64,000 bases of DNA from a phage, in sequence record PX393110.1. One strand, written 5' to 3'. Under the pieces are notes generated by a model. The model was not told where the DNA came from. It worked only from the letters and a program-made list of their open reading frames with translations, and searched no databases. Made by a program: the position numbers and the translations under genes. The first letter of the stretch is position 1, and every line of letters begins with the position of its first letter. Below are positions 3,602 through 44,394 of the stretch, one piece after another.

Positions 3602-3676
3602 ATCGTACCTTAACGAGTAAATAAAAATAGGCTGTTAACCGAGGGCGTTCCCCAAGTTAACAGCCTTTGGACCGTA

Positions 3677-10291: not shown

Positions 10292-10310
10292 TACTTAATT
10301 CTCCAAATTA

Positions 10311-10626
10311 TTATGCAGCTACGGATAAGTTTTCAAGGTAACTAACCACTCGGTCGGAATGGCGGAAGATCTTCGGATCCTGAGGTAAGTCAGTCGCGAA
10401 GTTGTGGAAGATCTTGTAGTAGATCTCCCGACGCTGCTCGTCGTTCTTATGAGGAACTCGAACAGTTATGGAAATAGTCTGATCTCCCTTATCCACCAGG
10501 ATGTACGGGAAACCTGTAGAGGAAGCAAATACCCCACGGTAGTTAACACGGTCGAACAGATTACTGAGCATCTGATACGATTTACGCTGGCGGAAAGTAG
10601 CCTTAGACGGATCAAAGTACTGCATT
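10311..10626 (-). CDS. hypothetical protein
   Basis: start refined to MQYFD (ATG 10624-10626) preceded by GGAG. Confidence 0.3.
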
Positions 10627-10956
10627 GATAATCTCCTCAGCCTGATGATCAACCAGGAATACTCCACACTGACCATCATAACCAATACGTTGTGCATTAA
10701 AGCCATACACAGTAATAACTTCAGATATGCCGTCGATAGGATCAGTTTCACCAGTACGAATCACTGGGTAGCGACCAGACAGGATATACTGCTCAATCAC
10801 CATGGCCCAGTGATCGTTATGAGACGACCCAGCCACAATCTTATCAGGCTCGGTGAGGATCAGGTCAGCGAACTTACGCAGAGCGGCCTCCTCGAAGCCA
10901 TCAACATCTGCCAAGGTCACCAGACCATGTTCCTTCTTGAACTCGTCACTAATCAT
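10612..10956 (-). CDS. hypothetical protein
   Basis: 114 aa ORF. Confidence 0.35.
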   Translation of the reverse strand: MISDEFKKEHGLVTLADVDGFEEAALRKFADLILTEPDKIVAGSSHNDHWAMVIEQYILSGRYPVIRTGETDPIDGISEVITVYGFNAQRIGYDGQCGVFLVDHQAEEIINAVL

Positions 10957-11419
10957 AAAGCCTCCAGAACTAAGTGGACGTTATTCCCTACGCTGTCATT
11001 TACAACGATATGGGATTTAAACTTATACATTTCGTTGATCACATCGGTCATGTGAATCACCGGAATATACACTCGGTCAGAACCAACTACTGCAACTTCA
11101 TTAAGCCAGTCGTAGTCGATTTCATGGGTCTTCAGAAGATTTATGAGATCACGGTACATGAAGCTTACAGACTTGATTCCGCCACTCATACGAGCAGCCC
11201 AGTCTGTAGCAGGGACGGATTCGATTTCCTTCCTACCTTTCATCTTACGGCGAAAGATGGCGGACTGAACGTTCCATAACTCTGAGAATTCTTGATCGGG
11301 GATTTCTCGACCATGCTTGGTCCGGGAGACCAGTCGAGCTTGAGGATCGGCATTAGGACGGAACTGCTCAGCAATAGAAGGAGCAGCTTGTTGGAAGGCA
11401 GCGAAAAGGGATGTAGACA
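10953..11419 (-). CDS. hypothetical protein
   Basis: start refined to MSTSLF (ATG 11417-11419) with GGAGAAAG upstream. Confidence 0.4.
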
Positions 11420-11469
11420 TGACTTTCTCCAGTCTTTCAAGGTCGCAGGCAACGCGACGGATCATTCGG

Positions 11470-11535
11470 CGGGGAACGCCCCGCGCCCAAGTTAACGGGC
11501 TGCAGAGCGCTCCAGACTTCGTTTTATTTTTGGTT
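11470..11535 (-). promoter_or_regulatory. class-2 conserved intergenic element, copy E (divergent)
   Basis: GGCGGGGAACGCCCCGCGCCCAAGTTAACGGGC...TTCGTTTTATTTTTGG. Confidence 0.35.
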
Positions 11536-11817
11536 TTGAGCTTGCTGGAACATCTTGGTGATTTCCAGCATCAGGTCACGGTAGTCAGAAGTCTGAACTC
11601 CTTCCAAACCGTAGTCGGCAATGATTGACTTGAAGTAGTTCATACCGTCCTGGAGGTTATTGAACTCCAGAGGATCTTCAGCCATCGCCAGGTAGACTTC
11701 GGACATAACCACTGGACGGCCATCTTTCTCATCAACGAAAGCAACCAGAACAGCCAGCTCATCTTTGTCAGCAACTGTAGGATTGGAAGAGAAACCGAAG
11801 TTTTTAGCAGTAAACAT
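11524..11817 (-). CDS. hypothetical protein
   Basis: start refined to MFTAKNF (ATG 11815-11817); leader AATTTGGAGCTAATTATG. Confidence 0.4.
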   Translation of the reverse strand: MFTAKNFGFSSNPTVADKDELAVLVAFVDEKDGRPVVMSEVYLAMAEDPLEFNNLQDGMNYFKSIIADYGLEGVQTSDYRDLMLEITKMFQQAQNQK

Positions 11818-14263: not shown

Positions 14264-14294
14264 TTAACAGCCTTTCGAGTCATCAAAAGAGCGG
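14264..14294 (-). promoter_or_regulatory. class-1 conserved motif TTAACAGCCTTT-N9-CAAAAGAGCGG (plus-strand reading), copy 1
   Basis: one of 18 same-orientation copies, each in the short spacer upstream of a minus-strand gene start. Confidence 0.45.
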
Positions 14295-14296
14295 TT

Positions 14297-14566
14297 TTAT
14301 CGAATTAGCCCATACTTCCATGCCATTACATGCGCAGGTTCGTTATGAGCGAAGAATGCGGTACCCTTCTTGGTAGTAAGCACCAAACACGGCTTATTTC
14401 CCATCATATCAGCCATGCTAGCTACCACAGTCTTCTCAGACCCAGGCTTAGCCGGATCAATGCCCATAGCTATTTTATGAGCAGTTGTCTTACCAGGACG
14501 TCTCGGATTAGATACCAAGACTTTAGGGGAGGTCTTTCGGCCACCCTTACGCTGCTTTCTCGCCAT
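14297..14566 (-). CDS. hypothetical basic protein
   Basis: 89 aa ORF with Lys/Arg-rich N-terminus. Confidence 0.3.
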   Translation of the reverse strand: MARKQRKGGRKTSPKVLVSNPRRPGKTTAHKIAMGIDPAKPGSEKTVVASMADMMGNKPCLVLTTKKGTAFFAHNEPAHVMAWKYGLIR

Positions 14567-17500
14567 GTTTAGGCTCCAGAGTTATTTTAGCCTTAAGCTC
14601 GATATACTTACATCCCCAGCCTGTACCGTCGGAACGAATACCGGATTTGGAGTTGAAGCTGTTAGCTATAGAGTTTAACTTCTCCTTCTCCTTAAGGATC
14701 TCTACGTATGGAGTCCACTGGCTATACTGATCGAGAGCTTCCAGTAGTTTCTCCAATGCAGACTCACGACCCTCAACGATCAGCCATCCGGAACCATCTT
14801 CGTTAACTCCATAGTCATCCAGACCCATCAAGGAACCGCCCCGAGCACCGAATTCGATATCAGTGCGCATAGGCATATCCCAGAGTTCACGAATAGCCCC
14901 CTCCATATTCTCACGAGTCTTCTGGAACACCTTGAACATCTCGTTGATTCCGGATGTGGTATCCAAGGAGTCGTGGACCATGATGTGAGTCTCGGCCTCC
15001 ATATTGGACTGCTTAAAGTCCTCATCCAGGAAGTACATACCTGCGCCAGCAACCATCGACGAAGTATTCTGGATAGGATAGTTCACCGAAGTAGAGTTAA
15101 CGTTGGTACCTTCCAGGTTGATACGGTTACCGAAGTAACCATAAGCATACCCAGTCTCGAAGCCATTTTTCTTGGTAGCATCAATCCATGCCTTAAGACC
15201 GGTAAACTTACCGAATACCGTGTCCATCAGATTCTGAGCACGCTCCATATCACCACCAGTAGCAACCATCGCTACCGATTCAAGGCTAGACTGGTATACT
15301 AATGCGAAGTTAATCGCCTTACCACCCTTACGCTCAACATCAGTTACTTCAGGTTCAGACTTCTGGTATGCAATCGAGCTAACGAATCGGTGCATGTCGC
15401 CACCAGATAAGAATACGTTCTTCATATCCGAGTCATCGGCGAACACGCTAACCATCACCAGCTCAGCCTGGCTAAAGTCCTGGTGGTACCACAGGCCACC
15501 CTCCGGCTTAGATACCCAGATGTTACGCAGAGTACTGTCGCCAGGAACGTTATGAATACCTGCCTGCCAACGAGATGTAATCGCAGCCAACGAGTTAAAG
15601 TCCGGAGTCATGATGTAGCAATCTTCACCATCCTGCAACTTCGGATTATCCCAGTCGTACTTACGAACTCGCAGCGGAGGTAAACCATCACGTAGTTTAG
15701 CTGCCCATACCGTCTGGCGTCCTACCTTACCATCAATGTATGTAGCAATCTGTTTGTAGTGACGCTTATACATCTTCAGGTCAACCATCATACGGAACGA
15801 TGTATTCCAGGTAGACTCGTCATCCGGATTAACTCCCAACATCAACTGGTGAATAGCCAATTGGGCATCGAGAACATCCGCTTTAAACTTATTCGTGAAT
15901 CGCTCTTCATAAGCTTCCAGACCGTCCTGGACGCACATGGCAATTAACTCCCGAACATGCTTAGACTCAGCAGTATCCCCGAATTGGATGATCCTGGTTA
16001 AGATCTCATCTACCGGAAACTCCCGGAAGAATTCCCTCTCCAGCTTCTCCGAATCCTTAGGCACGAACCCCTTAGAGATCGCCAGCAGGGTTTTATCCCA
16101 GTAGTCATGCACCTTAAGCTGGTCCATTACAGACCATAGCATGGTACACATCTCTACTTCATCAGTAAGATAGGCTTTCCAGAACTTCTCCTTATTAGCC
16201 TTATCGTTACTGTTAGGGTTGAAGAATCCTGACAGATCAGCAATCTTCCCAGCCAGAGTAGTAACCATCTTACGGCGCTCTTGTCCACCAGGAGTGTACC
16301 ATACGTTCTCGTACGGCAACTCTCGATAGATAAAGTCGCGAGCTGTAAGCATCTGGTCAGGAGGTAACTTAAGGTTAGGGATTAGGCTAACCAAGTGCTC
16401 CGACATTTTGCTCATGCAATAGTCGTACTCTTTAGTCGCCTCTTCGTCATCCCAACGAATACCGTTAGCTTCGAAGATAGATGCCAGGTATGGATGTAAC
16501 ATATATACGTTATACCCATCCTTATACTTATCGTAAAACATCTCGTGGATGAACACACCGTACGCGGAGTCATAGCAGCAGTACTCCCCAAGAATCTCAC
16601 GAGGAATCGCACCCCACTCATATGGGTAGAACGATGCCAAGTAAATAATCTCGGATTCTTCGAGCTCCTCCGATAGTTCGGCTATCTTATCCAGCATAAA
16701 CTGGTTGAAGTTAACAGGAATACGATTCTTAGCCGCCTTAGTCGGAGCCGCTTCCACGAGTTTCTCGTACTCAGCTTTAAGAGCTAGGTGATGCTCAATA
16801 TTGAACTCGCCAGACTGAATCTCTGCAATCTGCTCAGGAGTACAACGCTTCTTCATATCCTTGAAGATAGCTGCCCAACGATCCTTCCATTCGTGTACCG
16901 ACCCTTCCCAGAAGTCTGCATGTAAATAACGACGAGCAGCATCTTTCAACGAGCTCCGTTCGCCATGCATAGTCAGAGTTACAATCGCATCGATAAACTT
17001 GCAGAATACGTCTAACCAATGCCACGTAGTCTTAATCTCGTACGGACAGTTAAACGCCACGATCTGCTCCTGGAACTTAACCAGGAAGTCACGCAAGAAT
17101 CCTAGCTGTTCCGGAGTCTCTTTACCGGTAACATTGTACCATACGGACTTGGCATCCTTATCACCAATCTTCTTAGCGATACTGAATCCAGTGATCCGGA
17201 AGTCTACCGAGAATAAATCAGCTGCGTTAGACTCATAGTCGAGGCCGAGATAGCCTTTGTACCCAGACCACATAATGTCGTTAAGGAACTCCTGGAGGCC
17301 GTTCCAGTCGACGAATTCCCACTCTACATTATATTCGGATTCTTTCTGGCCGAATACCAGAAACTTAAAACGATCAATCCACGAATCAAGTATACCAGGA
17401 TCAGAATCCAGATTACGTTCAACCTGGGCATGGTGCATGACTACAGCTAGCTTAAAGTTATACTCCGGTATGTTACCCAGAGGGAACTTCAGTAGCTTAT

Positions 17501-17834
17501 CCAGAGTCTTCTTATGCGTATAGCCTGGGGATATAGTCGCAGCTAATTGGCGACCCAAAGTCATTACATGCTTAACGCCATGCTTTTCACACAGCTCGTA
17601 AAAGTTGAGACCATCCTTATCACGGATTTCGTCTATGTTAGACAGCTCTTCGAAAGTACCATCTCTGTTGATCTCTATCAGACCAACTTTGTTATGTACC
17701 CCAGCTGTAATTAGCGCTACATCAAGAGTTTGGCCAGCATTCGATGCAGCAAACGGAGGAGCATCATTATTCTCGCGCTCGTCCCCGATAATGACATAGT
17801 CTACTTCGCCAACTAAATTGTGATTCAGAAACAT
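14547..17834 (-). CDS. family A DNA polymerase
   Basis: motif A DFSQAEL (cf. DYSQIELR), motif B KGGKAINFALVYQ (cf. RRxAKxxNFGxxYG), motif C VHDS (cf. VHDE); start refined to MFLNH at 17834. Confidence 0.8.
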   Translation of the reverse strand: MFLNHNLVGEVDYVIIGDERENNDAPPFAASNAGQTLDVALITAGVHNKVGLIEINRDGTFEELSNIDEIRDKDGLNFYELCEKHGVKHVMTLGRQLAATISPGYTHKKTLDKLLKFPLGNIPEYNFKLAVVMHHAQVERNLDSDPGILDSWIDRFKFLVFGQKESEYNVEWEFVDWNGLQEFLNDIMWSGYKGYLGLDYESNAADLFSVDFRITGFSIAKKIGDKDAKSVWYNVTGKETPEQLGFLRDFLVKFQEQIVAFNCPYEIKTTWHWLDVFCKFIDAIVTLTMHGERSSLKDAARRYLHADFWEGSVHEWKDRWAAIFKDMKKRCTPEQIAEIQSGEFNIEHHLALKAEYEKLVEAAPTKAAKNRIPVNFNQFMLDKIAELSEELEESEIIYLASFYPYEWGAIPREILGEYCCYDSAYGVFIHEMFYDKYKDGYNVYMLHPYLASIFEANGIRWDDEEATKEYDYCMSKMSEHLVSLIPNLKLPPDQMLTARDFIYRELPYENVWYTPGGQERRKMVTTLAGKIADLSGFFNPNSNDKANKEKFWKAYLTDEVEMCTMLWSVMDQLKVHDYWDKTLLAISKGFVPKDSEKLEREFFREFPVDEILTRIIQFGDTAESKHVRELIAMCVQDGLEAYEERFTNKFKADVLDAQLAIHQLMLGVNPDDESTWNTSFRMMVDLKMYKRHYKQIATYIDGKVGRQTVWAAKLRDGLPPLRVRKYDWDNPKLQDGEDCYIMTPDFNSLAAITSRWQAGIHNVPGDSTLRNIWVSKPEGGLWYHQDFSQAELVMVSVFADDSDMKNVFLSGGDMHRFVSSIAYQKSEPEVTDVERKGGKAINFALVYQSSLESVAMVATGGDMERAQNLMDTVFGKFTGLKAWIDATKKNGFETGYAYGYFGNRINLEGTNVNSTSVNYPIQNTSSMVAGAGMYFLDEDFKQSNMEAETHIMVHDSLDTTSGINEMFKVFQKTRENMEGAIRELWDMPMRTDIEFGARGGSLMGLDDYGVNEDGSGWLIVEGRESALEKLLEALDQYSQWTPYVEILKEKEKLNSIANSFNSKSGIRSDGTGWGCKYIELKAKITLEPKHGEKAA

Positions 17835-17864
17835 GTTTAACTCCAAAAATAAACCTCCGCCAAT

Positions 17865-17895
17865 TTAACAGCCTTTTAGGCCGCTAAAAAGGCGG
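17865..17895 (-). promoter_or_regulatory. class-1 conserved motif, copy 2
   Basis: TTAACAGCCTTTTAGGCCGCTAAAAAGGCGG; flanked by inverted repeat CCTCCGCC/GGCGGAGG. Confidence 0.45.
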
Positions 17896-20497: not shown

Positions 20498-20813
20498 AGA
20501 CTAAACTCTGACCCGCATGGATGCGTACTGCATGGTTCTTGTTAGAGTTAGTCAGACGAATCCACTTACCTTCGTCTGTAGAGAATACCTGAGCAGTTAA
20601 GCCCAGGTAAGATACAGAAAGATTAGAGATAGAGTCGACAGTTACCGTACTATCTACCGGAAACTCTACCGATGAGCCAGCTCCAACAATGTAGCCACTC
20701 TTACGCAGCTTCATTGGAGCAATACGACTACTGTGCTGATCGTCAGCACCAATTGTCCGAGCGAACGAGCTCTCAACGTAAACAGTTTCAGGAATATTAA
20801 TCTGCATTGCCAA
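20487..20813 (-). CDS. hypothetical protein
   Basis: 108 aa ORF. Confidence 0.3.
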   Translation of the reverse strand: MAMQINIPETVYVESSFARTIGADDQHSSRIAPMKLRKSGYIVGAGSSVEFPVDSTVTVDSISNLSVSYLGLTAQVFSTDEGKWIRLTNSNKNHAVRIHAGQSLVYGN

Positions 20814-21396
20814 TAGTCTCTTTAACCAGGTGCTCTATTGAACTACCATGTGCCATATGGAGAAGAGACTGGAGAGTACCCATCCATACATCATCACTCA
20901 CTTCGTCTTTGTACTTATTGAAGCAGGTACTGAAGATGTTGCGGCAGTTCTCCAGCTCGCTTTCGCCAAAGAAGATGTTACCCATGCTGAACTCAGTCAT
21001 GATCTCACGAGATACCGCAATAGCATCTGCAACTTTACAGATGAACTTAGCTTCGGCAGATGCAGGAGTGCGGAAAGTAGGAAGTACCTCTTCCCAGATT
21101 TCCTGCTCAACTTTATTCAGAGTCTCTTTTAACTCTGGGAAGCGAGCCTTAGCAGTGTAGGGGACATCACCTGTAAAGATCTCTGGAATGTCGTGAACCA
21201 ACGAGTACTGATTTACTTCCAGACCCTGCTCAGCAGTTAAAAATCCATCCATCACCAGTTTCTGAACAATCAGAGTAGAGTAGTAAGTAACTTCGAAGCT
21301 ATGCTCCGAGATAGTAGAGCGATGAGACAGTACTTGCTTACCTGCGAAACGATTCACGTTATTGGTACACACTGGTACCTTAAAAAGATCTTTCAT
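20797..21396 (-). CDS. HD-domain phosphohydrolase, YfbR-like 5'-deoxynucleotidase (putative)
   Basis: H...HD...D pattern: EHSFEVTYYS ... LVHDIPEIFTGDVP. Confidence 0.55.
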   Translation of the reverse strand: MKDLFKVPVCTNNVNRFAGKQVLSHRSTISEHSFEVTYYSTLIVQKLVMDGFLTAEQGLEVNQYSLVHDIPEIFTGDVPYTAKARFPELKETLNKVEQEIWEEVLPTFRTPASAEAKFICKVADAIAVSREIMTEFSMGNIFFGESELENCRNIFSTCFNKYKDEVSDDVWMGTLQSLLHMAHGSSIEHLVKETIGNAD

Positions 21397-21448: not shown

Positions 21449-21479
21449 TTAACAGCCTTTCGAGCCCTAAAAAGAGCGG
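21449..21479 (-). promoter_or_regulatory. class-1 conserved motif, copy 3
   Basis: TTAACAGCCTTTCGAGCCCTAAAAAGAGCGG. Confidence 0.45.
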
Positions 21480-22553
21480 TTATTCCAGAATAAACGGAGA
21501 CTTATCCCCGAGGCGGTTCGCGACCCATTTCACGAATGGTGAATTAACCAGATGCTCGCACTGGATAGACATGTGAGCTCCAGTAGTCTTACATAGATAA
21601 TGAGCGCCTGCTAACCACATCATCACATCCAGAGTTGATCCTGGTTGGAACTCTCGACCAACATCTTCCATTACGTATTCTAGAATACTGTGATCGCTAT
21701 TATAACGAGAAGCAGCATCTTCAAGAGTAGCGATGTAATGCTGGAAGTAGGTACGGATCTTATACCAGGAATTAAGTGATCCGAGATCAATCGTAGTTAC
21801 CGGAGCTTCATTAATGTCGTCAACATAAGCTCGGATATTACTTACCTGCTTCTTGATGTTCGACACTTCCGGATACCAGTGGAGATCATCCGTCATCACC
21901 ACATAGTTGCCCATATCTACTTTGAGCATAGTTGCGATGATTTCCTGGATGATCGTGAACTCCACCAGATTAACGTTAGTCAATCCCCAGATTAGATCAT
22001 TACTACGGTTGAATACCGTGCAGTCCAGACCACCATTACGGTACTTAAACGATAGAGCAATGTTGCAGATCATATCTGCGGTATTGATGCTGCCAATGCT
22101 GTTTACCAGACCTACATCAGAATCACGGCTGGGATCGTGAATAGTAGCCACGCACTTACGGTTACCCAGGTCAGAACGGAGGCGGTCTGTTACAGTCTGG
22201 AGTTGATCGTAGTTATACAGACGCTCACCGTAAGCACCACGCCAGGTAACCATATCATCGCTAAACATCTTAGCGCGAGGAACCATAATCGACATCCAGT
22301 TATCGATTGCATAGCCACCAGACAGTACCCACAATACTTCCCCCATAATTCCGAGGATATTGTCTTTACGTTCTGGATGAGCCATCCAACGATTAATCGG
22401 ATTACTTAACTCAACTACAGCATGACCGATGGATACTACCGCCGAAGAGTTAACAGAAGTTCTGGACTTCTGCAACTCACCAGCCTTATCCATAGTATTG
22501 ATGCTGTTAACCAGGATTTCAGTATTACTGTTACCGCGAATTACCGAGATCAT
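21480..22553 (-). CDS. thymidylate synthase-family enzyme (ThyA homolog; possible pyrimidine C5 hydroxymethyltransferase)
   Basis: ILGIMGEVLWVLSGG (cf. ELLWFLxGxTN), WRGAYGERLY (cf. PVYGxQWR), ADMICNIALSFKY (catalytic Cys region, cf. ALPPCH..QFYV), LDCTVFNRSNDLIWGLTNVNLVEF (cf. LSCQLYQRSxDxxLGxPFNIASYALL). Confidence 0.6.
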   Translation of the reverse strand: MISVIRGNSNTEILVNSINTMDKAGELQKSRTSVNSSAVVSIGHAVVELSNPINRWMAHPERKDNILGIMGEVLWVLSGGYAIDNWMSIMVPRAKMFSDDMVTWRGAYGERLYNYDQLQTVTDRLRSDLGNRKCVATIHDPSRDSDVGLVNSIGSINTADMICNIALSFKYRNGGLDCTVFNRSNDLIWGLTNVNLVEFTIIQEIIATMLKVDMGNYVVMTDDLHWYPEVSNIKKQVSNIRAYVDDINEAPVTTIDLGSLNSWYKIRTYFQHYIATLEDAASRYNSDHSILEYVMEDVGREFQPGSTLDVMMWLAGAHYLCKTTGAHMSIQCEHLVNSPFVKWVANRLGDKSPFILE

Positions 22554-23272
22554 TTAGAGTCCTTACGCACTGAATCAATAGACTTAACTGCAGAGGACAG
22601 TAACTCCAGACGGGCCTCCTGAGGGATCATACCAGATGGCTCGTTCAGGATCATAATACCTTTACCAGTATTAGTAAAACGAGCTGTGATTGATCCAGGA
22701 TACACCGGATGATTCAGAGTTACAGAATTACACAACGCAGCACCGAATCGCTCCTCGTAGGCACGCATAGTTACCTTAAGGAGAGTAGAACTGACTGCTA
22801 CAGAGTATTCAGGATCAACAACACGGAAGTTATTGTCCTCAATACTCTTATCCTTCGTATTGAAGAACAGAGTCATGTTATAATAATCAATAGACTCGTT
22901 ACTGAGACGTAATGCCTCATCACGAGCTTCCTGGCTGGCAAACATACTGTTATGCAGCAGGAAGTAAACGTACGAATCGAATACCGCACGATCACTGACG
23001 ATCAACTCGCCACGATTGTAGGCATCCTTGAACATCTGAGTTCGCTGACGAATAAGACGCAGCTGGAACTCTACCGCTTCCATAGGATCTTCTACAGCTA
23101 AGCGCAGAATATCCATATGGGATGTTACTCCCAGAGGAAGATGGTCACGAGTCTGTACTGCACGGAAGGTACATTCGGTTGATTCTTCCCAACCTTTAGC
23201 CAGGGTAGATTTACCGGTACCCTGCGCACCAGACATAATTACACTGTAGCCTGGGATACTATAGTCTCTCAT
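22550..23272 (-). CDS. P-loop nucleotide/nucleoside kinase
   Basis: Walker A MSGAQGTGKSTLA; start refined to MRDYS (ATG at 23272) with GGAGAGAA upstream. Confidence 0.55.
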   Translation of the reverse strand: MRDYSIPGYSVIMSGAQGTGKSTLAKGWEESTECTFRAVQTRDHLPLGVTSHMDILRLAVEDPMEAVEFQLRLIRQRTQMFKDAYNRGELIVSDRAVFDSYVYFLLHNSMFASQEARDEALRLSNESIDYYNMTLFFNTKDKSIEDNNFRVVDPEYSVAVSSTLLKVTMRAYEERFGAALCNSVTLNHPVYPGSITARFTNTGKGIMILNEPSGMIPQEARLELLSSAVKSIDSVRKDSK

Positions 23273-23304
23273 TATTCTCTCCAATTAAGAATCTTTCCCA
23301 CATT

Positions 23305-23335
23305 TTAACAGCCTTTCAAGACCCTAAAAGAGCGG
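23305..23335 (-). promoter_or_regulatory. class-1 conserved motif, copy 4
   Basis: TTAACAGCCTTTCAAGACCCTAAAAGAGCGG. Confidence 0.45.
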
Positions 23336-23361: not shown

Positions 23362-24333
23362 CTAGCTAAACTTATACCAGCGAGGTCTCATACGGATCTC
23401 GTGATTCAGTTTATGTAGTTTCGAGAATTCGCAGAATGAGTTGGTGAACATCTGGCGAGTATAGAATCGCTCATCCTCTGGCATGAAGTGGAACCATTTC
23501 TCCGGTTCCCATGAATACCCGAAATGTGCACATATCTCTTTGATGTTCTGATACCACCATTCCACGAATACCTGATAACCACAGGGAGGATTCTGGTCAT
23601 TAATCATGTACCATACCCCATCCTGAGTCCCAGGTCCACATACGATAGCGTCATTATCTGTATACGCAGTCTCTTTAGAGTAGGACATAGTTGCCCAGCA
23701 TTGATATGCCATGAACGGACCTAATCCAGATACCTGTAACAGATGCTCGATAGCCTCGGTAGCGAACGGAGACTTCCATGCCCATAAGATAGGATCACTG
23801 TAGGTCTTCACCAGATAGGCTCTGGCAGCTACACTGTACTTAATATCCTCTGGACATACTTCATTAGCCATCTTAACTGCTGTGCTAAGGAAGTAGGCAT
23901 TTGATTGCTGTGGAGCGGTGAACGGAGGACCATCCTCATAACGACGTAGCTCTTCGCGACCCATGTTATGTATGTCGTCATAGCTCATCTCATAAAGAGG
24001 AAGGACTCTGCGGAAGCGATCCATATATGAATCACCACGGTTTATCATCTGGAAGAGTACTACATTAAGTGCTTTACTCTCCCAGCTTAAAGAATCGTTC
24101 TCCAGAATGTTCTTAATAGCCCACACTGTTTCACGATCGTGCTTACGGAACACGTTAGTGAATTTGAACTTACTAATCCACTTATGTTCCGTCCACGGAG
24201 GAGGCAGCTTAAGCACCTCCTTCTTATAATAAACCTCTGTACGTTCACGGTTATACTCCACATACTCCCGTAACTCCTCAGGATTTATCATCCCAAGGAG
24301 TCCTTCGTAATGCAGACCTAACGGTGTTGACAT
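23362..24333 (-). CDS. hypothetical protein (323 aa), translationally coupled to upstream GT
   Basis: start ATG overlaps upstream stop (TAATG at 24331-24335); Trp/aromatic-rich, no recognisable motif. Confidence 0.45.
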   Translation of the reverse strand: MSTPLGLHYEGLLGMINPEELREYVEYNRERTEVYYKKEVLKLPPPWTEHKWISKFKFTNVFRKHDRETVWAIKNILENDSLSWESKALNVVLFQMINRGDSYMDRFRRVLPLYEMSYDDIHNMGREELRRYEDGPPFTAPQQSNAYFLSTAVKMANEVCPEDIKYSVAARAYLVKTYSDPILWAWKSPFATEAIEHLLQVSGLGPFMAYQCWATMSYSKETAYTDNDAIVCGPGTQDGVWYMINDQNPPCGYQVFVEWWYQNIKEICAHFGYSWEPEKWFHFMPEDERFYTRQMFTNSFCEFSKLHKLNHEIRMRPRWYKFS

Positions 24334-25412
24334 TAAAGAATACCTTCTTTGGTAAAGTAGTCGATTACTTCATCCTGAAGTTCTTGTGCGTAATCCTTGC
24401 GCAGATACAGATTCTCATACTGATGTTTCAGCAGAGCATCACGATCTTTCAGTTTCTCTGCAATCTCCGCATTACTGGAGACGATCAGAGGAGCCAGCAG
24501 CTCTTCGGGGACGCCGCTCCGGATTATTGTTCCGGCAGCATCTTTATCCACCAACATCAGAGTACCAGAGCTCAGGTATTCATAATAACGGTTAGGTGGG
24601 CTGGTATAGAACGAGTTACTAGAGTTCCAGTCTTCAATAAGCAGTACCGCTGCGTATTTAGCCACTTCATCCAGCATCTCTGACAGCTTAAACTTAGGCA
24701 GCCAGTTAATAGGAGCAGCAGGCCCCAGCCACTTACGTTCTTTAGGATCCAGCTCTTCCCAGTTTTCCTGCTCGTAGCCGTCAAATCCAGCAAGACCACC
24801 AGTATGTTTAGCGATAGACATCTGAGCTTTGTAGCTAGGCACCGACATAAACAGTTCCAGACCATCCTGCTGGGAGAAGTACTGAGTGAACTTATGGAAG
24901 CGACCTTCACGAGCAGCACCGTAATACAGCAGGCTATTGTCTGGTTTATCAGATGAGCCGTAGCGAGGCTTACGACCAGGAACGTAGGTAAGACGGTTCC
25001 AGTTAATGTGGTGATAGTTCTCTTCGCTAGGGGAGTACTGATTACCCCAGGAAGTACGCTCGAATGCTGCTACTACTTTAAATGTCGTAGCTGCTGTGAT
25101 GTGTCGCCACTGCGGACCCTGGATACGCATACGTGATGAATAATCTTGACCAATCCAGTAAAACTTAGCTCCGAGGTCCGCCTGGTCTACCCAGAATTTA
25201 TACATCTCATCGCGGAACTTACAGAAGGTAGGAACACCATTGACGGCGATGATCACGTCATATTTGGTGCCATCTTCCATAGCCTTAACAAACTTAGGAG
25301 TATCATCCAGCAAGTCCGCCTGAAGTCCGTAGGCTAACCAGGATGCCAGAGTGTTACTGGCGATGATGGATTTATCGCTGCATGGCGAAAAGTTAGTTAC
25401 TGCAATTTTCAT
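24333..25412 (-). CDS. GT-B fold glycosyltransferase, phage DNA beta-glucosyltransferase-like (putative)
   Basis: MKIAVTNF... N-terminus, LLYYGAAREGRFHKFTQYFSQQDG and NRYYEYLSSGTLMLVD segments resemble T4 beta-glucosyltransferase as recalled from memory; not searched. Confidence 0.4.
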   Translation of the reverse strand: MKIAVTNFSPCSDKSIIASNTLASWLAYGLQADLLDDTPKFVKAMEDGTKYDVIIAVNGVPTFCKFRDEMYKFWVDQADLGAKFYWIGQDYSSRMRIQGPQWRHITAATTFKVVAAFERTSWGNQYSPSEENYHHINWNRLTYVPGRKPRYGSSDKPDNSLLYYGAAREGRFHKFTQYFSQQDGLELFMSVPSYKAQMSIAKHTGGLAGFDGYEQENWEELDPKERKWLGPAAPINWLPKFKLSEMLDEVAKYAAVLLIEDWNSSNSFYTSPPNRYYEYLSSGTLMLVDKDAAGTIIRSGVPEELLAPLIVSSNAEIAEKLKDRDALLKHQYENLYLRKDYAQELQDEVIDYFTKEGIL

Positions 25413-25440: not shown

Positions 25441-25470
25441 GTAACAGCCTTTTAGCTCATCAAAGAAGCG
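25441..25470 (-). promoter_or_regulatory. class-1 conserved motif, copy 5 (variant)
   Basis: GTAACAGCCTTTTAGCTCATCAAAGAAGCG. Confidence 0.35.
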
Positions 25471-26494
25471 AATTAGCTGATGCCCAACTCAGCCACTTAT
25501 CATTGAGATCAGTTAAGTAGGAATAGTCTTTGTTTAATCCGAATACCGTACGGTTAGTTCCATCGAACTTCATTACCCCAGCACCAGGAGCTCGGATAAT
25601 TGCATCTTCGGTAGCCGTACAATACTCTTTCAAGTATTCCTGGATGTTGGGACGAATACGACGGAACGAGCTATCTGCAGAGTCATAGTGGAACATATCT
25701 GCACAATGCCACTGTACGTAGGACTTATCTGGACGGCTAAGCAGCTCATTACGAGTTACCATATCTTTCGGAGAGTAGCCTAGCTTAGCTACGGTGACTT
25801 CGTGAATACCACCGCCATTAGAAGAGGTGTCCATTAACCAGTTCTCATCCCAGTAGAACGAGCTACCAGTACCGGTTACCTGGCCCACTTTCCATCCCAT
25901 CGCCATACCTTTAAACAACAGGTAGCAATCCTCACCTACAGTGAGTTGCTGGAAGGTCTTATCGAACAGCCAGAACATCTTCTCGCTAGTCTTGACCATA
26001 ATACCCAGGTCAGTAGCCGGAGCAGTGTTATTATGGGACTGACGATCGCAGAGTTCAACAATCTTGTAGTTACGGTTCTTGAAGCTACGGACGAACGCCA
26101 TCTCAAACTCAGATCCCTCGAAGTCGATAATGGACCGATCCAGATGGAAGATATCGTCGGCGAACCAGACATCATCATCCACGAAGTAGCAGATGTCTGG
26201 GCACCAGTCCTGCTTCTCCATTACAATCCATGCTTTATCCAGAGCATGGGCACGGATTTCTCCGATTACCGGATTTTCGTACTTAGGGCTATGACAGAAA
26301 TTAAATTGCTCATCCCCACCAAACTGCTCTTCCAGAATTGCCTTATCTTCTTCGGAGGCATCCTGAATAAAGTAGAAGAAGCGATACTCAATAGAGTCGT
26401 CAGTCTTTTTAGCATCTTTGAACGACTGAATCTGACGGAGTACCGACTTCAGACGATGATAGGTTGGGATGATAAAAGCTACTTTGGTGGTCAT
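25460..26494 (-). CDS. family-2-like (GT-A fold) glycosyltransferase
   Basis: VAFIIPTYHR N-terminus and DxD motif YFVDDDVWF. Confidence 0.5.
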   Translation of the reverse strand: MTTKVAFIIPTYHRLKSVLRQIQSFKDAKKTDDSIEYRFFYFIQDASEEDKAILEEQFGGDEQFNFCHSPKYENPVIGEIRAHALDKAWIVMEKQDWCPDICYFVDDDVWFADDIFHLDRSIIDFEGSEFEMAFVRSFKNRNYKIVELCDRQSHNNTAPATDLGIMVKTSEKMFWLFDKTFQQLTVGEDCYLLFKGMAMGWKVGQVTGTGSSFYWDENWLMDTSSNGGGIHEVTVAKLGYSPKDMVTRNELLSRPDKSYVQWHCADMFHYDSADSSFRRIRPNIQEYLKEYCTATEDAIIRAPGAGVMKFDGTNRTVFGLNKDYSYLTDLNDKWLSWASANSLL

Positions 26495-26500
26495 AATTAT

Positions 26501-27112
26501 TTATCCAATTTGACGAACTAAGCGAAACCCTTCGGCGTACGGCCACTGGGCGGAATATCCACGTAAGGTGGCTAGGGCTAAGATACTCTGGGTATCTCGG
26601 TCTGACTTAATCTGGGAGTCGAATCGTCCCATAGCCTGGCACTTACACTCAATATCGTCCTTATTCAGACGCTCGAAGTAATTAGGTTCCATCTGACCGA
26701 ACTGGGTCAGGGACTCGGCATACTCATATTCCAGGATAAGCCAGTTATACGCTCGGAGAGCTACACGAGCAGCATGATTAACTAGTTGATGGTCCTGGTG
26801 TAGGCTACTGAACGGAATATAGACTACATCCGGCCTGATTTTAGCAACATAGTCCGCAATATCCTTAGCCAATTGCGGAATATCCTTCTGAGTCATACCA
26901 TCGCCTGTGGAGGCATCGTTACGCTCCAGGCAATGTACTTCTTTGATATTCGGATAGACACCGAATGCTGCTTCGGCTTCGCCACGACGGGTCTCGTCCG
27001 GAGCAGTTACTTCGAGGATGAAGAATTGGTCATCGCGGAATTTGCTCATAATACCTCCGCAACCCAGAATCTCATCATCGTGATGTGGGCTGATAATCAG
27101 TCGTGACTTCAT
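26501..27112 (-). CDS. PIG-L/LmbE-family N-acetylglucosaminyl deacetylase
   Basis: LIISPHHDDEILGCGG (family hallmark AHPDDE) and second His-rich motif SSLHQDHQLVNH. Confidence 0.6.
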   Translation of the reverse strand: MKSRLIISPHHDDEILGCGGIMSKFRDDQFFILEVTAPDETRRGEAEAAFGVYPNIKEVHCLERNDASTGDGMTQKDIPQLAKDIADYVAKIRPDVVYIPFSSLHQDHQLVNHAARVALRAYNWLILEYEYAESLTQFGQMEPNYFERLNKDDIECKCQAMGRFDSQIKSDRDTQSILALATLRGYSAQWPYAEGFRLVRQIG

Positions 27113-27127
27113 TATTAATCCTCGCTA

Positions 27128-27163
27128 CACAAAAATGGGGTTAGGCCGTAGAGACCTAACCCC
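27128..27163 (-). terminator. intrinsic terminator-like hairpin
   Basis: minus-strand RNA: GGGGUUAGG-loop-CCUAACCCC followed by AUUUUUGUG; sits between class-1 copy 6 and the LmbE start. Confidence 0.45.
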
Positions 27164-27179
27164 GTACGCCTCTGACACC

Positions 27180-27210
27180 TTAACAGCCTTTTAGGTCATC
27201 AAACAGGCGG
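27180..27210 (-). promoter_or_regulatory. class-1 conserved motif, copy 6
   Basis: TTAACAGCCTTTTAGGTCATCAAACAGGCGG; overlaps the 3' end of the transporter gene. Confidence 0.4.
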
Positions 27211-28581
27211 AGTTTCCTTAGCCAAGAATACTTTAGGTACAAAGATCTTGAGGAACCCGAATAGAATACACAATACCCCAATCAGTACCGGAACAGCCGA
27301 TACAGCTACCAGAGTCTTCGTTACAGTTACTACGTCGCCACCTGCCCAGTTAAGTGCAGCAGCAACTACACCCATGCTTACAATCCAGAATACACGAGTT
27401 CTAGGAGCGGTCATGGACTCTACCGTAATACCTGCTGAGTCATGACCTGTAATAAAGAACAGGATCACAGACACGAGGGTAATTACCGAGAATATCCATC
27501 CGCCTGGGAAATTAGCCAGAAGCTGGAAGATATCCTGAGCACCATGTTGTAGACCAGCTACACCGAATACGGTAAACCAGACGTTACTGATGATGGTAGG
27601 GAACAGTACACATCCGAGGATCAGTTCGCGAATAGTACGGCCGTAAGAGATACGTGCCACAAACGCTCCGACGAATAATGCCCAACCTACCCAGGCTGCA
27701 TAGTAAGCATAAGGCCAGCTAGCCAGCCATTGCTTCTCTTCAGCAGTACTGCCGATGTTTACTGACATAGGAATAATCTGGAGCAGATAGCTACCAGAAT
27801 AGGTGATGGTCTTCCAGAGGTATTCGAAGAATGTACCACTTACAGCAACGAATGCCATAATAGATAGAGCTACGATTACATTATATCTGGATAACCACTT
27901 AACCCCACGATCGACACCAGTTACGGCACTAAGTACAGTACCCAGAGTCAGGAGCGCGATAATGGTGTAAGGACCAACATCCACTCCCAGGAACTCTTTA
28001 AATCCGGAACTGATCGGGCCTACTGCGTAGACGAACGACAGGGTTAAGCCTATGATGGTAGAGAAGAGTAAGCTTATCGTATTAAGGTTATTCAGAGCTC
28101 GGGACTTGAATAACTGATTAAGCGGACGGTCTTCACCACGTACATGCAGTAAGTACCCGAATGCCACCCCTACGACTGCATAAACTGCCCATGCGTTAAG
28201 TCCCCAGTCAAAGAAGGTAGTTACCATATTCTGACGTTCGGACATACCCTCCTGCTGATGGTACATAGGTTCGAGTACACCATAATAAATCATGGATACA
28301 CCCATACCGGTACTAAACATCATGGAGTAATAGGTAAAGCGATTATATTTCGGAGCACCTTTACCCAGCTTAATGTTACCATGCTTGCTGAATACAAAGA
28401 ATGCCAGGAACGCTAGGAAGATCAGCGAAGACCAGGTAAATATGAATCCATACTGAGATATGAATACAGACTTACTCCAGTCCATTACAGCACCAAACTG
28501 GGTGGGAGCTAACATAATGGCGAGTATGATACCCACCGTTACTAGCACCGTCCCCCAGGTAACTACCTTTGAATCTGACAT
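27199..28581 (-). CDS. BCCT-family (betaine/carnitine/choline-type) secondary transporter
   Basis: multi-TM protein; FSKHGNIKLGKGAPKYNRFTYYSMMFSTGMGVSMIYYGVLEP (cf. FSRYGNIRLG...WFAMLFxAGMGIGLxFxGVxEP) and VGAFVARISYGRTIREL (cf. GMFLARISRGRTIREF). Confidence 0.7.
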   Translation of the reverse strand: MSDSKVVTWGTVLVTVGIILAIMLAPTQFGAVMDWSKSVFISQYGFIFTWSSLIFLAFLAFFVFSKHGNIKLGKGAPKYNRFTYYSMMFSTGMGVSMIYYGVLEPMYHQQEGMSERQNMVTTFFDWGLNAWAVYAVVGVAFGYLLHVRGEDRPLNQLFKSRALNNLNTISLLFSTIIGLTLSFVYAVGPISSGFKEFLGVDVGPYTIIALLTLGTVLSAVTGVDRGVKWLSRYNVIVALSIMAFVAVSGTFFEYLWKTITYSGSYLLQIIPMSVNIGSTAEEKQWLASWPYAYYAAWVGWALFVGAFVARISYGRTIRELILGCVLFPTIISNVWFTVFGVAGLQHGAQDIFQLLANFPGGWIFSVITLVSVILFFITGHDSAGITVESMTAPRTRVFWIVSMGVVAAALNWAGGDVVTVTKTLVAVSAVPVLIGVLCILFGFLKIFVPKVFLAKETPPV

Positions 28582-28584
28582 TGA

Positions 28585-29493
28585 TTATTCCTCAATTACG
28601 CCCTTAGCGATTAACTGGCGACGGACGTATGCGTAGCCAGCAGGTGAAGTAGCGAGGACGATGTCCGCACTACGGAAGTTGGTTTCGATATAGAAGCACT
28701 CCTGAAGATCCCGCGTACAGAAGAGCTCAGTGCTCATCATACCCTCGCGTACGTTACATGCGTCTGCAACGAATTGCGCAACATCTTCGAAGTGGTCTAC
28801 CGAATGACTATAGCCGAATCCACGGGCATCAGTAGATATAACGTAGTTATGGCAGTACGGAGTGAAGTCAGTATCTTCGTAGGATTTACCCTGGATAGTG
28901 AAAATATCTGCATAATCCTTGAACCCGCTCGGGCTAACCAGAAGATCCCAGGCAACTACCATACCGTCGATAACATCTGCTTGAAGTACCAGAGAAGTAG
29001 TATATTCGTCCGGCGCCTTATCACAGACCAAAATTGGGGAGTCCCCCAGAAGGTCCGACATAGTGCCTGCACCCTTGCCCCCGTGAACACGATCACGGCG
29101 TACAAACGCCTCCTGAGGCTTCTGGTACAGTCTAAACGACGGTACAATCAGCGAATCAGGCATAGTTCCCAGATTAGCTTCGGAGCGAAGGCAGGATAAT
29201 TGGTCAGCTTTAGACCACGTACTTTCGATAGCGTGCAGATCGTTACCGATTTTGGTATAGATGTAGCTTTCCGGATTGCGGTACTTACCCTGATTCAGCT
29301 CTTCGATAACCGAGTCGAAATAAGGAAGTCGTACTGATCCCTCACGAGGAGCAGTTAACGCTACTGAACCATGCTTGGTATGATCCTGATCAACTACCAT
29401 AACCTGGTCCAGACTTACACCCATCTTAAGAATCTGGGATAGTGTAGCTGCTGTGTGGTTAGTGCAGCCAATCATCAAATCTAACTTCTTCAT
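28585..29493 (-). CDS. hypothetical enzyme, possibly ATP-grasp-like ligase
   Basis: glycine-rich HGGKGAG and C-terminal FYIETNFRSAD resembling the ATP-grasp E-x-N-x-R motif; weak. Confidence 0.3.
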   Translation of the reverse strand: MKKLDLMIGCTNHTAATLSQILKMGVSLDQVMVVDQDHTKHGSVALTAPREGSVRLPYFDSVIEELNQGKYRNPESYIYTKIGNDLHAIESTWSKADQLSCLRSEANLGTMPDSLIVPSFRLYQKPQEAFVRRDRVHGGKGAGTMSDLLGDSPILVCDKAPDEYTTSLVLQADVIDGMVVAWDLLVSPSGFKDYADIFTIQGKSYEDTDFTPYCHNYVISTDARGFGYSHSVDHFEDVAQFVADACNVREGMMSTELFCTRDLQECFYIETNFRSADIVLATSPAGYAYVRRQLIAKGVIEE

Positions 29494-29520
29494 TTTAATT
29501 CCTCAGTTAACTTGTACAAC

Positions 29521-29550
29521 CTAACAGCCTTTCGAACCCTAAAAAGAGCG
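29521..29550 (-). promoter_or_regulatory. class-1 conserved motif, copy 7 (variant)
   Basis: CTAACAGCCTTTCGAACCCTAAAAAGAGCG; about 27 nt upstream of ATG with GAGGA in between. Confidence 0.4.
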
Positions 29551-29594
29551 AAATAATAGATATCTAGCCACCTCGTAAGATGGCTATGTATATA

Positions 29595-30335
29595 TTACTT
29601 TAATTCGGAGAGATCTGCTATCTTCACCTTAGCTGTTACATCCCAGATTCCTTCACCAAATCCGGTATCTTCCAGCAGCTTAGGCACTTCACGTTTCTGT
29701 ACCTTAGACTGCTCGTACTTAAGCAGAGGAATATTACCGGTCTTATCCGATTGATCCCACAGATAAGTAGCAGCACCAATGTTATCGAACAGTGCGAGAT
29801 CTGGATTAAACTGGGTAAGGAGTCGGCAGTCCCAGTGAGATTTATGTTCCTCGAAAGGATTAGTCTCCGTACCACGCTGACGATACTCGTAGTTAGGAGT
29901 ACCGATCACGATTTTAGCCTTAGACTGGAATAGCTTAGACAACACCATAAGCCCATCTTCGCTATCCAGATGCTCCAACACATCTAGCCAGATAATAGTG
30001 CCGAATTTATCCAGCTCTTCAATAGGAAGATCTTTCAGCAGTTCAACGATATTGCAGATGTAGATATCGCTATATACATTTACACTGCCTTTGATGTAGT
30101 CTTCGCAGATGTCCAGACCTGTGATCTGACCTTCGAATCCTGCGTTACGGAGAGCTAGACCGATCTCTCCACGACCTAATCCCATATCCAGGATTGGCCC
30201 GGAGATAATTTCGTTACGGAGCATCCATTGGAGAAAGTGCTTCTGGACTAAGTAGGAGGTACCTCCGTTGCCCAGTGAAGCCTTCGTGACCTTAGTACCA
30301 GGAACGAAGTTACACTCGATATGTTTACCAAACAT
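29595..30335 (-). CDS. class I SAM-dependent methyltransferase (small-molecule type)
   Basis: motif I ILDMGLGRGEIG; post-I acidic GLDICEDY; TIIWLDVLEHL. Confidence 0.55.
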   Translation of the reverse strand: MFGKHIECNFVPGTKVTKASLGNGGTSYLVQKHFLQWMLRNEIISGPILDMGLGRGEIGLALRNAGFEGQITGLDICEDYIKGSVNVYSDIYICNIVELLKDLPIEELDKFGTIIWLDVLEHLDSEDGLMVLSKLFQSKAKIVIGTPNYEYRQRGTETNPFEEHKSHWDCRLLTQFNPDLALFDNIGAATYLWDQSDKTGNIPLLKYEQSKVQKREVPKLLEDTGFGEGIWDVTAKVKIADLSELK

Positions 30336-30361: not shown

Positions 30362-30392
30362 TTAACAGCCTTTGGAGCCGTAAAAGAAGCGG
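30362..30392 (-). promoter_or_regulatory. class-1 conserved motif, copy 8
   Basis: TTAACAGCCTTTGGAGCCGTAAAAGAAGCGG; lies between a terminator hairpin and the SD/ATG of the methyltransferase. Confidence 0.5.
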
Positions 30393-30404: not shown

Positions 30405-30434
30405 CCAAAAATTAGGGTGACCGAAGTCACCCTA
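30405..30434 (-). terminator. intrinsic terminator
   Basis: minus-strand RNA: AGGGUGAC-UUCG-GUCACCCU followed by AAUUUUUGG, directly after the topoisomerase stop. Confidence 0.55.
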
Positions 30435-33711: not shown

Positions 33712-33742
33712 TTAACAGCCTTTGGAGGGCTCAAAGGAGCGG
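33712..33742 (-). promoter_or_regulatory. class-1 conserved motif, copy 9
   Basis: TTAACAGCCTTTGGAGGGCTCAAAGGAGCGG. Confidence 0.45.
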
Positions 33743-39156: not shown

Positions 39157-39187
39157 TTAACAGCCTTTCGACCCTCCAAAAGAGCGG
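39157..39187 (-). promoter_or_regulatory. class-1 conserved motif, copy 10
   Basis: TTAACAGCCTTTCGACCCTCCAAAAGAGCGG. Confidence 0.45.
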
Positions 39188-44363: not shown

Positions 44364-44394
44364 TTAACAGCCTTTCGACGCTAATTAAAGGTGG
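44364..44394 (-). promoter_or_regulatory. class-1 conserved motif, copy 11 (variant 3' half)
   Basis: TTAACAGCCTTTCGACGCTAATTAAAGGTGG; about 25 nt upstream of ATG. Confidence 0.4.

Follow-up and report, generated by a model that had tools for sequence, protein, structure and literature searches.

The 64,000 nucleotides of phage DNA in record PX393110.1 (the window) contain a gene, which we will call ORF A (open reading frame A), that encodes a predicted ATP-grasp enzyme of a very rare family. ORF A lies in a cluster of genes for 5-hydroxymethyldeoxyuridine (5-hmdU), that is, for thymidine hypermodification. Together with a BCCT-family transporter and a PIG-L-family deacetylase, ORF A makes up a conserved tailoring core in this cluster. 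This combination of ATP-grasp enzyme, importer, and deacetylase inside a 5-hmdU cluster is new. The adjacent gene, which we will call ORF B, is very probably a class I S-adenosylmethionine (SAM)-dependent methyltransferase. It is specific to its lineage and lies outside the conserved core, as an accessory tailoring gene in a slot whose content varies.

The region around these two genes is 97.1% identical at the DNA level to Escherichia phage vB_EcoM_IME392 (116 kb; hereafter IME392); for phage EP_H11, the identity is 92.9%. In the records of these two phages, ORF A and ORF B are annotated as hypothetical proteins. An earlier note, made from the sequence of the window alone, had marked the two intervals. 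Each proved to be a complete ORF on the minus strand (the strand of every gene between about 19.5 and 50 kb of the window), and every motif that the note quoted is there: HGGKGAG and ETNFR in ORF A, and SAM-binding motif I and LDVLEH in ORF B. Strong purifying selection acts on the two ORFs. Against EP_H11, ORF A has a ratio of nonsynonymous to synonymous substitution rates (dN/dS) of 0.056 and ORF B has one of 0.033, and the range is 0.03 to 0.06 if IME392 is considered as well. Also, each ORF is preceded by a GAGGA ribosome-binding site and, further upstream, by a repeated 11-mer (described below). Together, these observations show that ORF A and ORF B are real genes and not chance ORFs.

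ORF A had no matches in Pfam, PHROGs, or NCBIfam, or in a phmmer search against PDB. None of the nine members of its family matched any ATP-grasp family in Pfam or NCBIfam, even at E values of up to 10, and a profile built from the nine sequences did not match any ATP-grasp chain in PDB. (The lone PDB match was to an oxidoreductase, 9fm7, with E = 0.019, which we set aside as chance.) Because no curated model or solved chain was matched even with a profile, we consider ORF A to represent a new family at the sequence level. A word-indexed search of 5.8 billion proteins gave four relatives of ORF A. When 1.84 billion cluster representatives were searched exhaustively with a profile, seven of the representatives found were real. 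(We disregarded P0011 and P0012, of 915 and 827 amino acids, whose five short matches to the glycine-rich region, at E values of about 1e-4 to 1e-3, look like low complexity.) We found no more relatives in IMG/VR, in JGI metagenomes, or in a further word-indexed search, and tblastn against INPHARED found none besides IME392 and EP_H11. On the basis of these searches, ORF A is the founding member of a tiny, phage-only family that is known from a few phage contigs and is part of no described family.

The conserved residues of this family are those expected of an ATP-grasp enzyme at most positions. Seven residues of ORF A (K95, R132, G138, K140, E256, E270, and R274) are invariant across all nine sequences, which include homologs with as little as 24% identity, and N272 is kept in eight of the nine. 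K95 is at the opening of the central domain. In most ATP-grasp proteins, a lysine on a strand of the central domain is followed by a flexible glycine-rich loop. The corresponding segment of ORF A is F130-V-R132-x4-H-G-G-K140-G-A-G (HGGKGAG is at residues 137-143), with an arginine at the usual lysine site. The predicted local distance difference test (pLDDT) score of the model described below is low at residues 137-139, as expected for a mobile loop. In the C-terminal domain, ATP-grasp enzymes are recognized by a Mg2+-binding acidic residue and, about 12-14 residues further on, an E-x-N motif. ORF A has this pattern: the acidic E256 is followed by ETNFR at residues 270-274 (E270-T-N272-F-R274, or E-x-N-x-R). 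When we aligned ORF A to the biotin carboxylase of E. coli (AccC) with hhalign, the best and sole aligned segment placed E256, E270, N272, and R274 on the catalytic residues E276, E288, N290, and R292. (With E. coli DdlB, hhalign gave a local match that was meaningless.)

The AlphaFold2 (AF2) model that was built from the nine sequences has a pLDDT of 83.8 and a predicted template modeling score (pTM) of 0.85. This good model followed the addition of five remote homologs from the exhaustive search of representatives. The model has the three-domain alpha/beta fold of ATP-grasp enzymes, which hold ATP between the central and C-terminal domains, and we are confident that the predicted fold is unambiguously ATP-grasp. 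Sequence identity to the solved members is 15% or less. The structural matches include the ATP-grasp kinases ITPK1 and PPIP5K, but ligases score higher. The earlier note had described a weak ATP-grasp signal in ORF A and had named fold prediction as a check; the predicted structure falls inside the ATP-grasp family and so bears the signal out. ORF A is a classic example of a protein family whose placement is beyond sequence methods but within reach of fold prediction.

ORF A is linked to a transporter. In the window, the gene for a BCCT-family transporter begins just past the stop codon of ORF A, and because the gap is only 3 nt, the two genes are probably co-transcribed. The promoter-like 11-mer is found before ORF A, and there is no copy between ORF A and the transporter gene. 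A sister contig (L004) has the same arrangement. The short gap and the placement of the 11-mer, in both the window and L004, indicate that ORF A and the BCCT gene form a conserved bicistronic unit. More broadly, we examined the contigs that contain homologs of ORF A (L003-L008, L011, and L012). A transporter gene directly follows the ORF A homolog in six of the eight lineages in which the downstream gene is readable. It is a BCCT gene in the window's group, in L003 (where the ORF A homolog is 36% identical), in L004 and L012 (70%), in L006 (31%), and in L011 (29%), and it encodes a major facilitator superfamily (MFS) importer in L007 (24%).

The BCCT protein matches structures of BetP (2.6e-48). 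BetP and CaiT bind the trimethylammonium head-group of their substrates in an aromatic cage, and what BCCT transporters typically carry is quaternary ammonium compounds rather than amino acids. The phage protein has a BCCT domain with the aromatic cage of transmembrane helices 4 and 8: in an alignment, the equivalents of W189, W194, Y197, W374, and W377 of BetP are kept, while W373 is replaced by alanine and G153 by serine. The phage transporter did not reach any of the substrate-specific equivalog cutoffs in NCBIfam. The earlier note had suggested that ORF A ligates an imported amine or amino acid onto a modified base or sugar. The linkage to transporters supports the use of an imported compound; an amine or amino acid as this compound, and a base or sugar as its site of attachment, are conjectural.

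It is very unusual for a lytic phage to encode a BCCT transporter. In the 50,697 phage records of INPHARED, convincing BCCT genes were found in IME392 and EP_H11 only. (The BCCT genes in "phage" records from Staphylococcus, Listeria, and Acinetobacter look like host DNA or fragments, and we did not use them as evidence.)

Table 1. Genes, motifs, and hairpins near ORF A and ORF B. Positions refer to the window unless a contig is named.
Feature	Position	Strand	Evidence or remark
ORF A	28585..29493	-	Complete ORF, 302 aa, ATG start; predicted divergent ATP-grasp enzyme
ORF B	29595..30335	-	Complete ORF, 246 aa, ATG start; very probable class I SAM-dependent methyltransferase
BCCT-family transporter	27199..28581	-	Pfam BCCT 4.3e-92, 309.5 bits; starts 3 nt past ORF A stop
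PIG-L/LmbE-family Zn-dependent de-N-acetylase	26501..27112	-	Pfam PIG-L 6.7e-14, 52.9 bits (cutoff 28.2)
Putative GT-A-type glycosyltransferase	25460..26494	-	FIIPTYHR and DDD motif read from the translation; weak assignment
Putative GT-B-type glycosyltransferase	24333..25412	-	Glyco_trans_1_2, E = 0.017, below cutoff; weak assignment
Protein with helical domain of 5-hmdU DNA kinase	23362..24333	-	Pfam HMUDK_hel 4.8e-35, 121.7 bits (cutoff 25)
P-loop kinase (AAA_28, thymidylate-kinase-like)	22550..23284	-	Domain match
Thymidylate-synthase-family enzyme, candidate dUMP hydroxymethylase	21480..22553	-	Thymidylat_synt 4.7e-12, 46 bits (cutoff 24.3); phrog_3676 7e-71
HD-domain YfbR-like deoxynucleotidase	20797..21396	-	Pfam YfbR-like 1.7e-14
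AAAGGCTGTTA, copies 1-10	3658-3668, 14265-14275, 17866-17876, 21450-21460, 23306-23316, 25442-25452, 27181-27191, 29522-29532, 30363-30373, 33713-33723	-	
AAAGGCTGTTA, copies 11-19	39158-39168, 44365-44375, 45355-45365, 46820-46830, 48052-48062, 48234-48244, 48292-48302, 48899-48909, 50245-50255	-	
AAAGGCTGTTA before ORF A	29522..29532	-	Start of the ORF A-BCCT unit
AAAGGCTGTTA before ORF B	30363..30373	-	Exact copy
Terminator-like hairpin and T-run	30413..30434	-	Between topoisomerase A gene and ORF B
Hairpin	29565..29586	-	Between ORF B and ORF A
Sister cassette	L004 3674-7578; L012 1808-5712		Six genes replacing ORF B

The genes on the other side of the transporter (Table 1) place this unit in a 5-hmdU cluster: the island has both a thymidylate synthase (TS)-family candidate for dUMP hydroxymethylase and 5-hmdU DNA kinase sequences. 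The HMUDK_hel domain and the AAA_28 P-loop kinase are encoded by separate, adjoining genes, which could represent a split 5-hmdU DNA kinase. The PIG-L protein contains the zinc-binding motifs PHHDDE and HQDH. Its best match in NCBIfam is the bacillithiol deacetylase BshB1 (1.3e-5), with 25 bits relative to an equivalog cutoff of 182.5. The product of the putative GT-A-type gene did not match any family in our scans of Pfam, PHROGs, and NCBIfam. Its ortholog in L004 weakly matches Glyco_transf_5, and it also has a paralog in the L004 cassette that is discussed below.

Much of this island is conserved in distant lineages. The window/L004 lineage, L006, and L011 have in common a primase-like gene, the HD nucleotidase, the TS-like enzyme, the AAA_28 kinase, ORF A, and the BCCT transporter. 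PIG-L is found in the window, L004, L012, and L006, and it adjoins the BCCT gene in the latter three. HMUDK_hel is found in the window, L004, and L011. L011 also has additional genes, which encode a GT4 glycosyltransferase, a cupin, a cytidylyltransferase (CTP_transf_like), HMUD2, and, with weak matches, ADDT and inositol-1-phosphate synthase. ORF A (~30% identity) and BCCT (~42%) have diverged to a similar extent as the neighboring TS-like, kinase, and HD genes (34-40%). This matching divergence suggests that ORF A and the BCCT transporter have an old association with this group of phages, rather than having been captured recently.

ORF B has the hallmarks of a class I methyltransferase: motif I ((D/E)xGxGxG) is present as DMGLGRG at residues 50-56, and strand 2 ends in an acidic residue, within GLD at residue 73. 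These two motifs align with their counterparts in 3dli and in the methyltransferase domains of Hen1. LDVLEH is at residues 117-122, and there is also a TPN motif. Five related Pfam families of methyltransferases match residues 45-160, with E values from 4e-5 to 1e-3; besides Methyltransf_25, these include weaker matches to Methyltransf_23, Methyltransf_31, and Methyltransf_11. In PDB, the best sequence match is to 3dli (8.9e-5), an uncharacterized methyltransferase, and the methyltransferase domains of Hen1 follow at 2.6e-3 and weaker. NCBIfam gave weak matches, most of them to O-methyltransferases (UbiG, BchM, Hen1, MftM, and BioC). Thus, ORF B shares motif I, GLD, LDVLEH after motif II, and TPN after strand 5 with enzymes of the Methyltransf_11/23/25 type (UbiG, BchM, MftM, Hen1, and 3dli), but unlike generic class I methyltransferases, it is below every curated cutoff. 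A regular-expression search for [DNS]PP[YFWH] found no such motif in ORF B, which has no PP dipeptide at all. This agrees with the earlier note, which had described a SAM methyltransferase without DPPY or NPPY. The missing sequence is the catalytic motif IV of DNA N6-adenine and N4-cytosine methyltransferases, and on these grounds we rejected ORF B as a DNA methyltransferase.

The earlier note had also described the methyltransferase as completing the island. This did not hold, as ORF B is absent from every other lineage that contains ORF A. Orthologs of ORF B were found in IME392 and EP_H11 only, and its C-terminal region of about 90 residues is unique. Its best match to a non-orthologous phage protein is a methyltransferase that is encoded amid six glycosyltransferase genes. 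In the sister lineage (L004 and L012), the slot of ORF B, with topoisomerase A on one side and the ORF A homolog on the other, is occupied by six other genes. These encode a DXD glycosyltransferase-like protein, the GT-A-like paralog, a phosphatidylserine-decarboxylase-like protein, a second weakly ATP-grasp-like protein (similar to MfnD), a 42-residue ORF, and a CxxCxxCC protein. The slot looks like a hot-spot that diversifies the DNA adduct. In the window, ORF B is flanked by hairpins and has its own promoter-like motif, so it appears to be a self-contained cassette.

In the distant relative L006, the gene for the A subunit of topoisomerase II (9312-11708) is split by an HNH intein (Intein_splicing and HNH_3), and its product has 798 amino acids, as compared to 415 in the window.

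The 11-mer before ORF A and ORF B, AAAGGCTGTTA, has 19 exact copies in the window, as compared to 0.8 expected. All of the copies are on the coding strand and in intergenic gaps, some tens of bases before the start of a gene; one of them (27181-27191) precedes the PIG-L gene. In L004, the 11-mer is found at the same operon starts, including the same position before the ORF A homolog; it is not conserved in the distant L011. It is probably a phage-specific promoter element. There is also a strong hairpin on the minus strand at 27137-27163 (an 11-bp stem with seven GC pairs and a T-run), between the 27181-27191 copy of the motif and the start codon of PIG-L (27112). This hairpin is inside the presumed 5' leader of PIG-L, unlike the hairpins before ORF A and ORF B, which are upstream of the motif. 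It could be a site of attenuation or processing.

The window also encodes parts of the transcription and replication machinery. Domains 1-2 and 3-5 of the beta-prime subunit of RNA polymerase (Rpb1) are split over two minus-strand ORFs (5330-6898 and 8777-10291). Because two ORFs share out these domains, the phage is predicted to encode a split multisubunit RNA polymerase, like phages phiKZ and AR9 and those of the YerA41 type. This polymerase may read AAAGGCTGTTA on hypermodified DNA. The family A DNA polymerase (14547-17846, minus strand) has 1,099 amino acids, and Pfam's DNA_pol_A covers only residues 766-1001. Its long N-terminus may correspond to the uracil-DNA glycosylase (UDG)-like extension of the YerA41/Carin-5 type of polymerase (PMC12686479). 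IME392 appears in a list of phages with DNA polymerases similar to those of YerA41, SP-15, and Carin-5 (PMC12686479).

Phages with known thymidine modifications, such as ViI, M6, SP10, phiW-14, and PaMx11 (PMC8989533) or SP-15, YerA41, and Carin-5 (PMC12686479), have the same front end as the island described here: a TS-like dUMP hydroxymethylase, a 5-hmdU DNA kinase domain, and a block of genes for post-replicative elaboration beside the replication genes. The described pathways then rely on aGPT-Pplase amino-acid transferases, pyridoxal phosphate (PLP)-dependent decarboxylases, and radical-SAM and flavin enzymes, and the paper by Lee et al. on thymidine hypermodification pathways names no ATP-grasp enzyme, transporter, or deacetylase (PMC8989533). 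In contrast, the tailoring core of the window's island consists of an ATP-grasp enzyme, a BCCT importer, and a PIG-L deacetylase. Our search of full-text literature found nothing relevant that joined hypermodification with ATP-grasp enzymes or BCCT transporters. Among known systems, ORF A is closest to the ATP-grasp ligases that join a carboxylate to an amine, thiol, or hydroxyl: Ddl/VanA, the L-amino-acid ligases BacD/RizA, LysX/ArgX, PylC, the "CPS-like" PRK12767 proteins (such as PDB 2pn1), and biotin carboxylase. ORF A differs from these in having an arginine instead of the ATP-binding lysine, in its restriction to a few phage contigs, and in its linkage to transporters.

We propose that ORF A is a catalytically competent ATP-grasp ligase that would join a carboxylate to an amine (or to a hydroxyl) in the core of a 5-hmdU hypermodification pathway. 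We infer the likely substrates, the polarity of ligation, and the action on DNA-linked groups as follows. The TS-like hydroxymethylase, the kinase, and the HD nucleotidase would lead to the formation of 5-hmdU and its incorporation into DNA. The 5-hmdU in DNA would be activated by the 5-hmdU DNA kinase module and then glycosylated by the two putative glycosyltransferases, probably with an N-acetyl-hexosamine. PIG-L would remove the acetyl group to leave a free amine. The BCCT transporter would bring in a quaternary-ammonium compound that is in short supply in the host, such as glycine betaine or carnitine, and ORF A would convert the imported carboxylate to an acyl-phosphate and join it to the freed amine. 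In phages that have ORF B, methylation of the appended moiety by ORF B would be an optional step, specific to that lineage, and its most likely form would be O-methylation of a sugar hydroxyl.

The order of these steps recalls the biosynthesis of bacillithiol and mycothiol (BshA/BshB/BshC and MshA/MshB/MshC), in which N-acetylglucosamine (GlcNAc) is added by a glycosyltransferase and loses its acetyl group to a PIG-L enzyme, after which the amine is acylated by an ATP-dependent ligase. This logic makes ours the most economical reading. The likeness goes no further than the logic: neither BshC nor MshC is an ATP-grasp enzyme, and in the phage the acceptor would be linked to DNA. Also, the thymidine of Carin-5 bears an oligosaccharide with N-acetylhexosamine (HexNAc) and phosphate, and its block of modification genes includes a deacetylase (PMC12686479). 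The overall chemistry that we propose is plausible, with a likelihood that we judge to be slightly short of even. The full route, in which environmental betaine, carnitine, or choline is imported by BCCT and is attached by the new ATP-grasp family to an amino sugar on 5-hmdU that has lost its N-acetyl group, with tailoring enzymes swapped at the hot-spot, is tentative, and it is more doubtful than the chemistry in outline.

Several observations weigh against this proposal. The ATP-grasp relationship of ORF A is invisible to every sequence method that we applied, so the assignment depends on structure prediction, and the alignment behind that prediction is shallow. The first AF2 model, from a five-sequence alignment, had a pLDDT of 38.9 and was unusable; the motif match to AccC, taken alone, falls short of significance (P = 0.068); and R132 stands where the ATP-binding lysine is expected. 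As for the pathway, both glycosyltransferase assignments are weak, and none of the island proteins that we scanned matched aGPT-Pplase or ADDT. The substrate of the BCCT transporter cannot be read from its sequence, and choline, which has no carboxylate, would be as plausible as betaine. In two of the lineages (L005 and L008, which are short contigs), the gene downstream of the ORF A homolog does not encode a transporter, and L011 has no recognizable PIG-L gene beside its BCCT gene. ORF B is below the gathering thresholds of Pfam (24.6 bits and 4.1e-5 for Methyltransf_25, with a cutoff of 27, and 20.0 bits for Methyltransf_11, with a cutoff of 21.2). Finally, we found no publication on the chemistry of IME392's DNA, and for both IME392 and the window's phage, the modification is a prediction.

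We considered other roles for ORF A. The polarity might be reversed: the carboxylate would be on the DNA-linked group (such as a uronic acid, as in SP-15, or an amino-acid adduct), and ORF A would couple it to the hydroxyl of imported choline or to an amine, to give a choline ester or an amide. We think that this is unlikely. Another role, which we consider quite unlikely, is that ORF A is a kinase with the ATP-grasp fold, which would phosphorylate the imported compound (such as choline to phosphocholine) for transfer to the DNA adduct as a phospho-headgroup. Such a kinase would fit with the presence of ITPK1 and PPIP5K among the structural matches, with the cytidylyltransferase near the ORF A-BCCT pair in L011, and with the phosphate in the modifications of Carin-5 and YerA41. 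Or, ORF A, BCCT, and PIG-L might form an auxiliary metabolic or anti-defense module that handles osmolytes or makes a small-molecule effector, apart from any DNA modification, with ORF B being unrelated. Nothing links these proteins directly to DNA, our scans of Pfam and PHROGs found no DNA-binding domains in them, and a transporter alone could help the infected cell. But the module lies inside or beside the 5-hmdU genes in four divergent lineages. In L011, it sits between the TS, kinase, and HD genes on one side and the GT4, ADDT, HMUD2, and HMUDK_hel genes on the other. Also, the similar divergence of ORF A, BCCT, and their TS-like, kinase, and HD neighbors points to a long association. A module apart from DNA modification therefore seems improbable to us. 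We favor a carboxylate-amine (or carboxylate-hydroxyl) ligase over these alternatives because of the higher structural scores of the ligases, the invariant arginine of E-x-N-x-R, the conserved deacetylase, and the cluster context.

Similarly, ORF B might methylate nucleic acids directly, as a Hen1-like RNA 2'-O-methyltransferase or as a non-canonical DNA methyltransferase. Bacterial and human Hen1 domains are among its few matches in PDB (E = 2.6e-3 to 0.75), and LDVLEH and TPNYEY of ORF B align with IEVIEH and TPNKEY of Hen1. On the other hand, the match to the Hen1 equivalog TIGR04074 (E = 0.0049) involves only residues 107-155 and scores just 15.4 bits against a family cutoff of 340, and 3dli, the top match in PDB, is a generic methyltransferase. 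Within its 246 amino acids, ORF B has neither DPPY/NPPY nor an additional domain for target recognition or RNA binding, and in the sister lineage its slot holds genes for tailoring sugars and amines. Direct methylation of nucleic acids thus seems rather improbable. The earlier note had taken ORF B for a small-molecule methyltransferase, a reading that a DNA or RNA methyltransferase would refute. As to DNA, the absence of the motif IV of DNA N-methyltransferases supports the note; as to RNA, the weak resemblance to the Hen1 2'-O-methyltransferase makes such a target possible, if improbable.

Known routes of thymidine hypermodification draw on amino acids, polyamines, and nucleotide sugars that are made by the host. 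If our proposal is correct, then ORF A would be the first ATP-grasp step in the modification of DNA bases. It would represent both a new class of enzyme and a new source of building blocks for DNA hypermodification, and the chemistry of the phage's DNA would be set by what the infected cell can take up. The proposal also predicts bulky adducts with a permanent charge, which could defeat restriction enzymes and CRISPR nucleases. The swappable tailoring slot beside the ligase gene suggests that there is diversifying selection on the adduct. Because IME392 and EP_H11 are isolates, they offer a tractable E. coli phage system.

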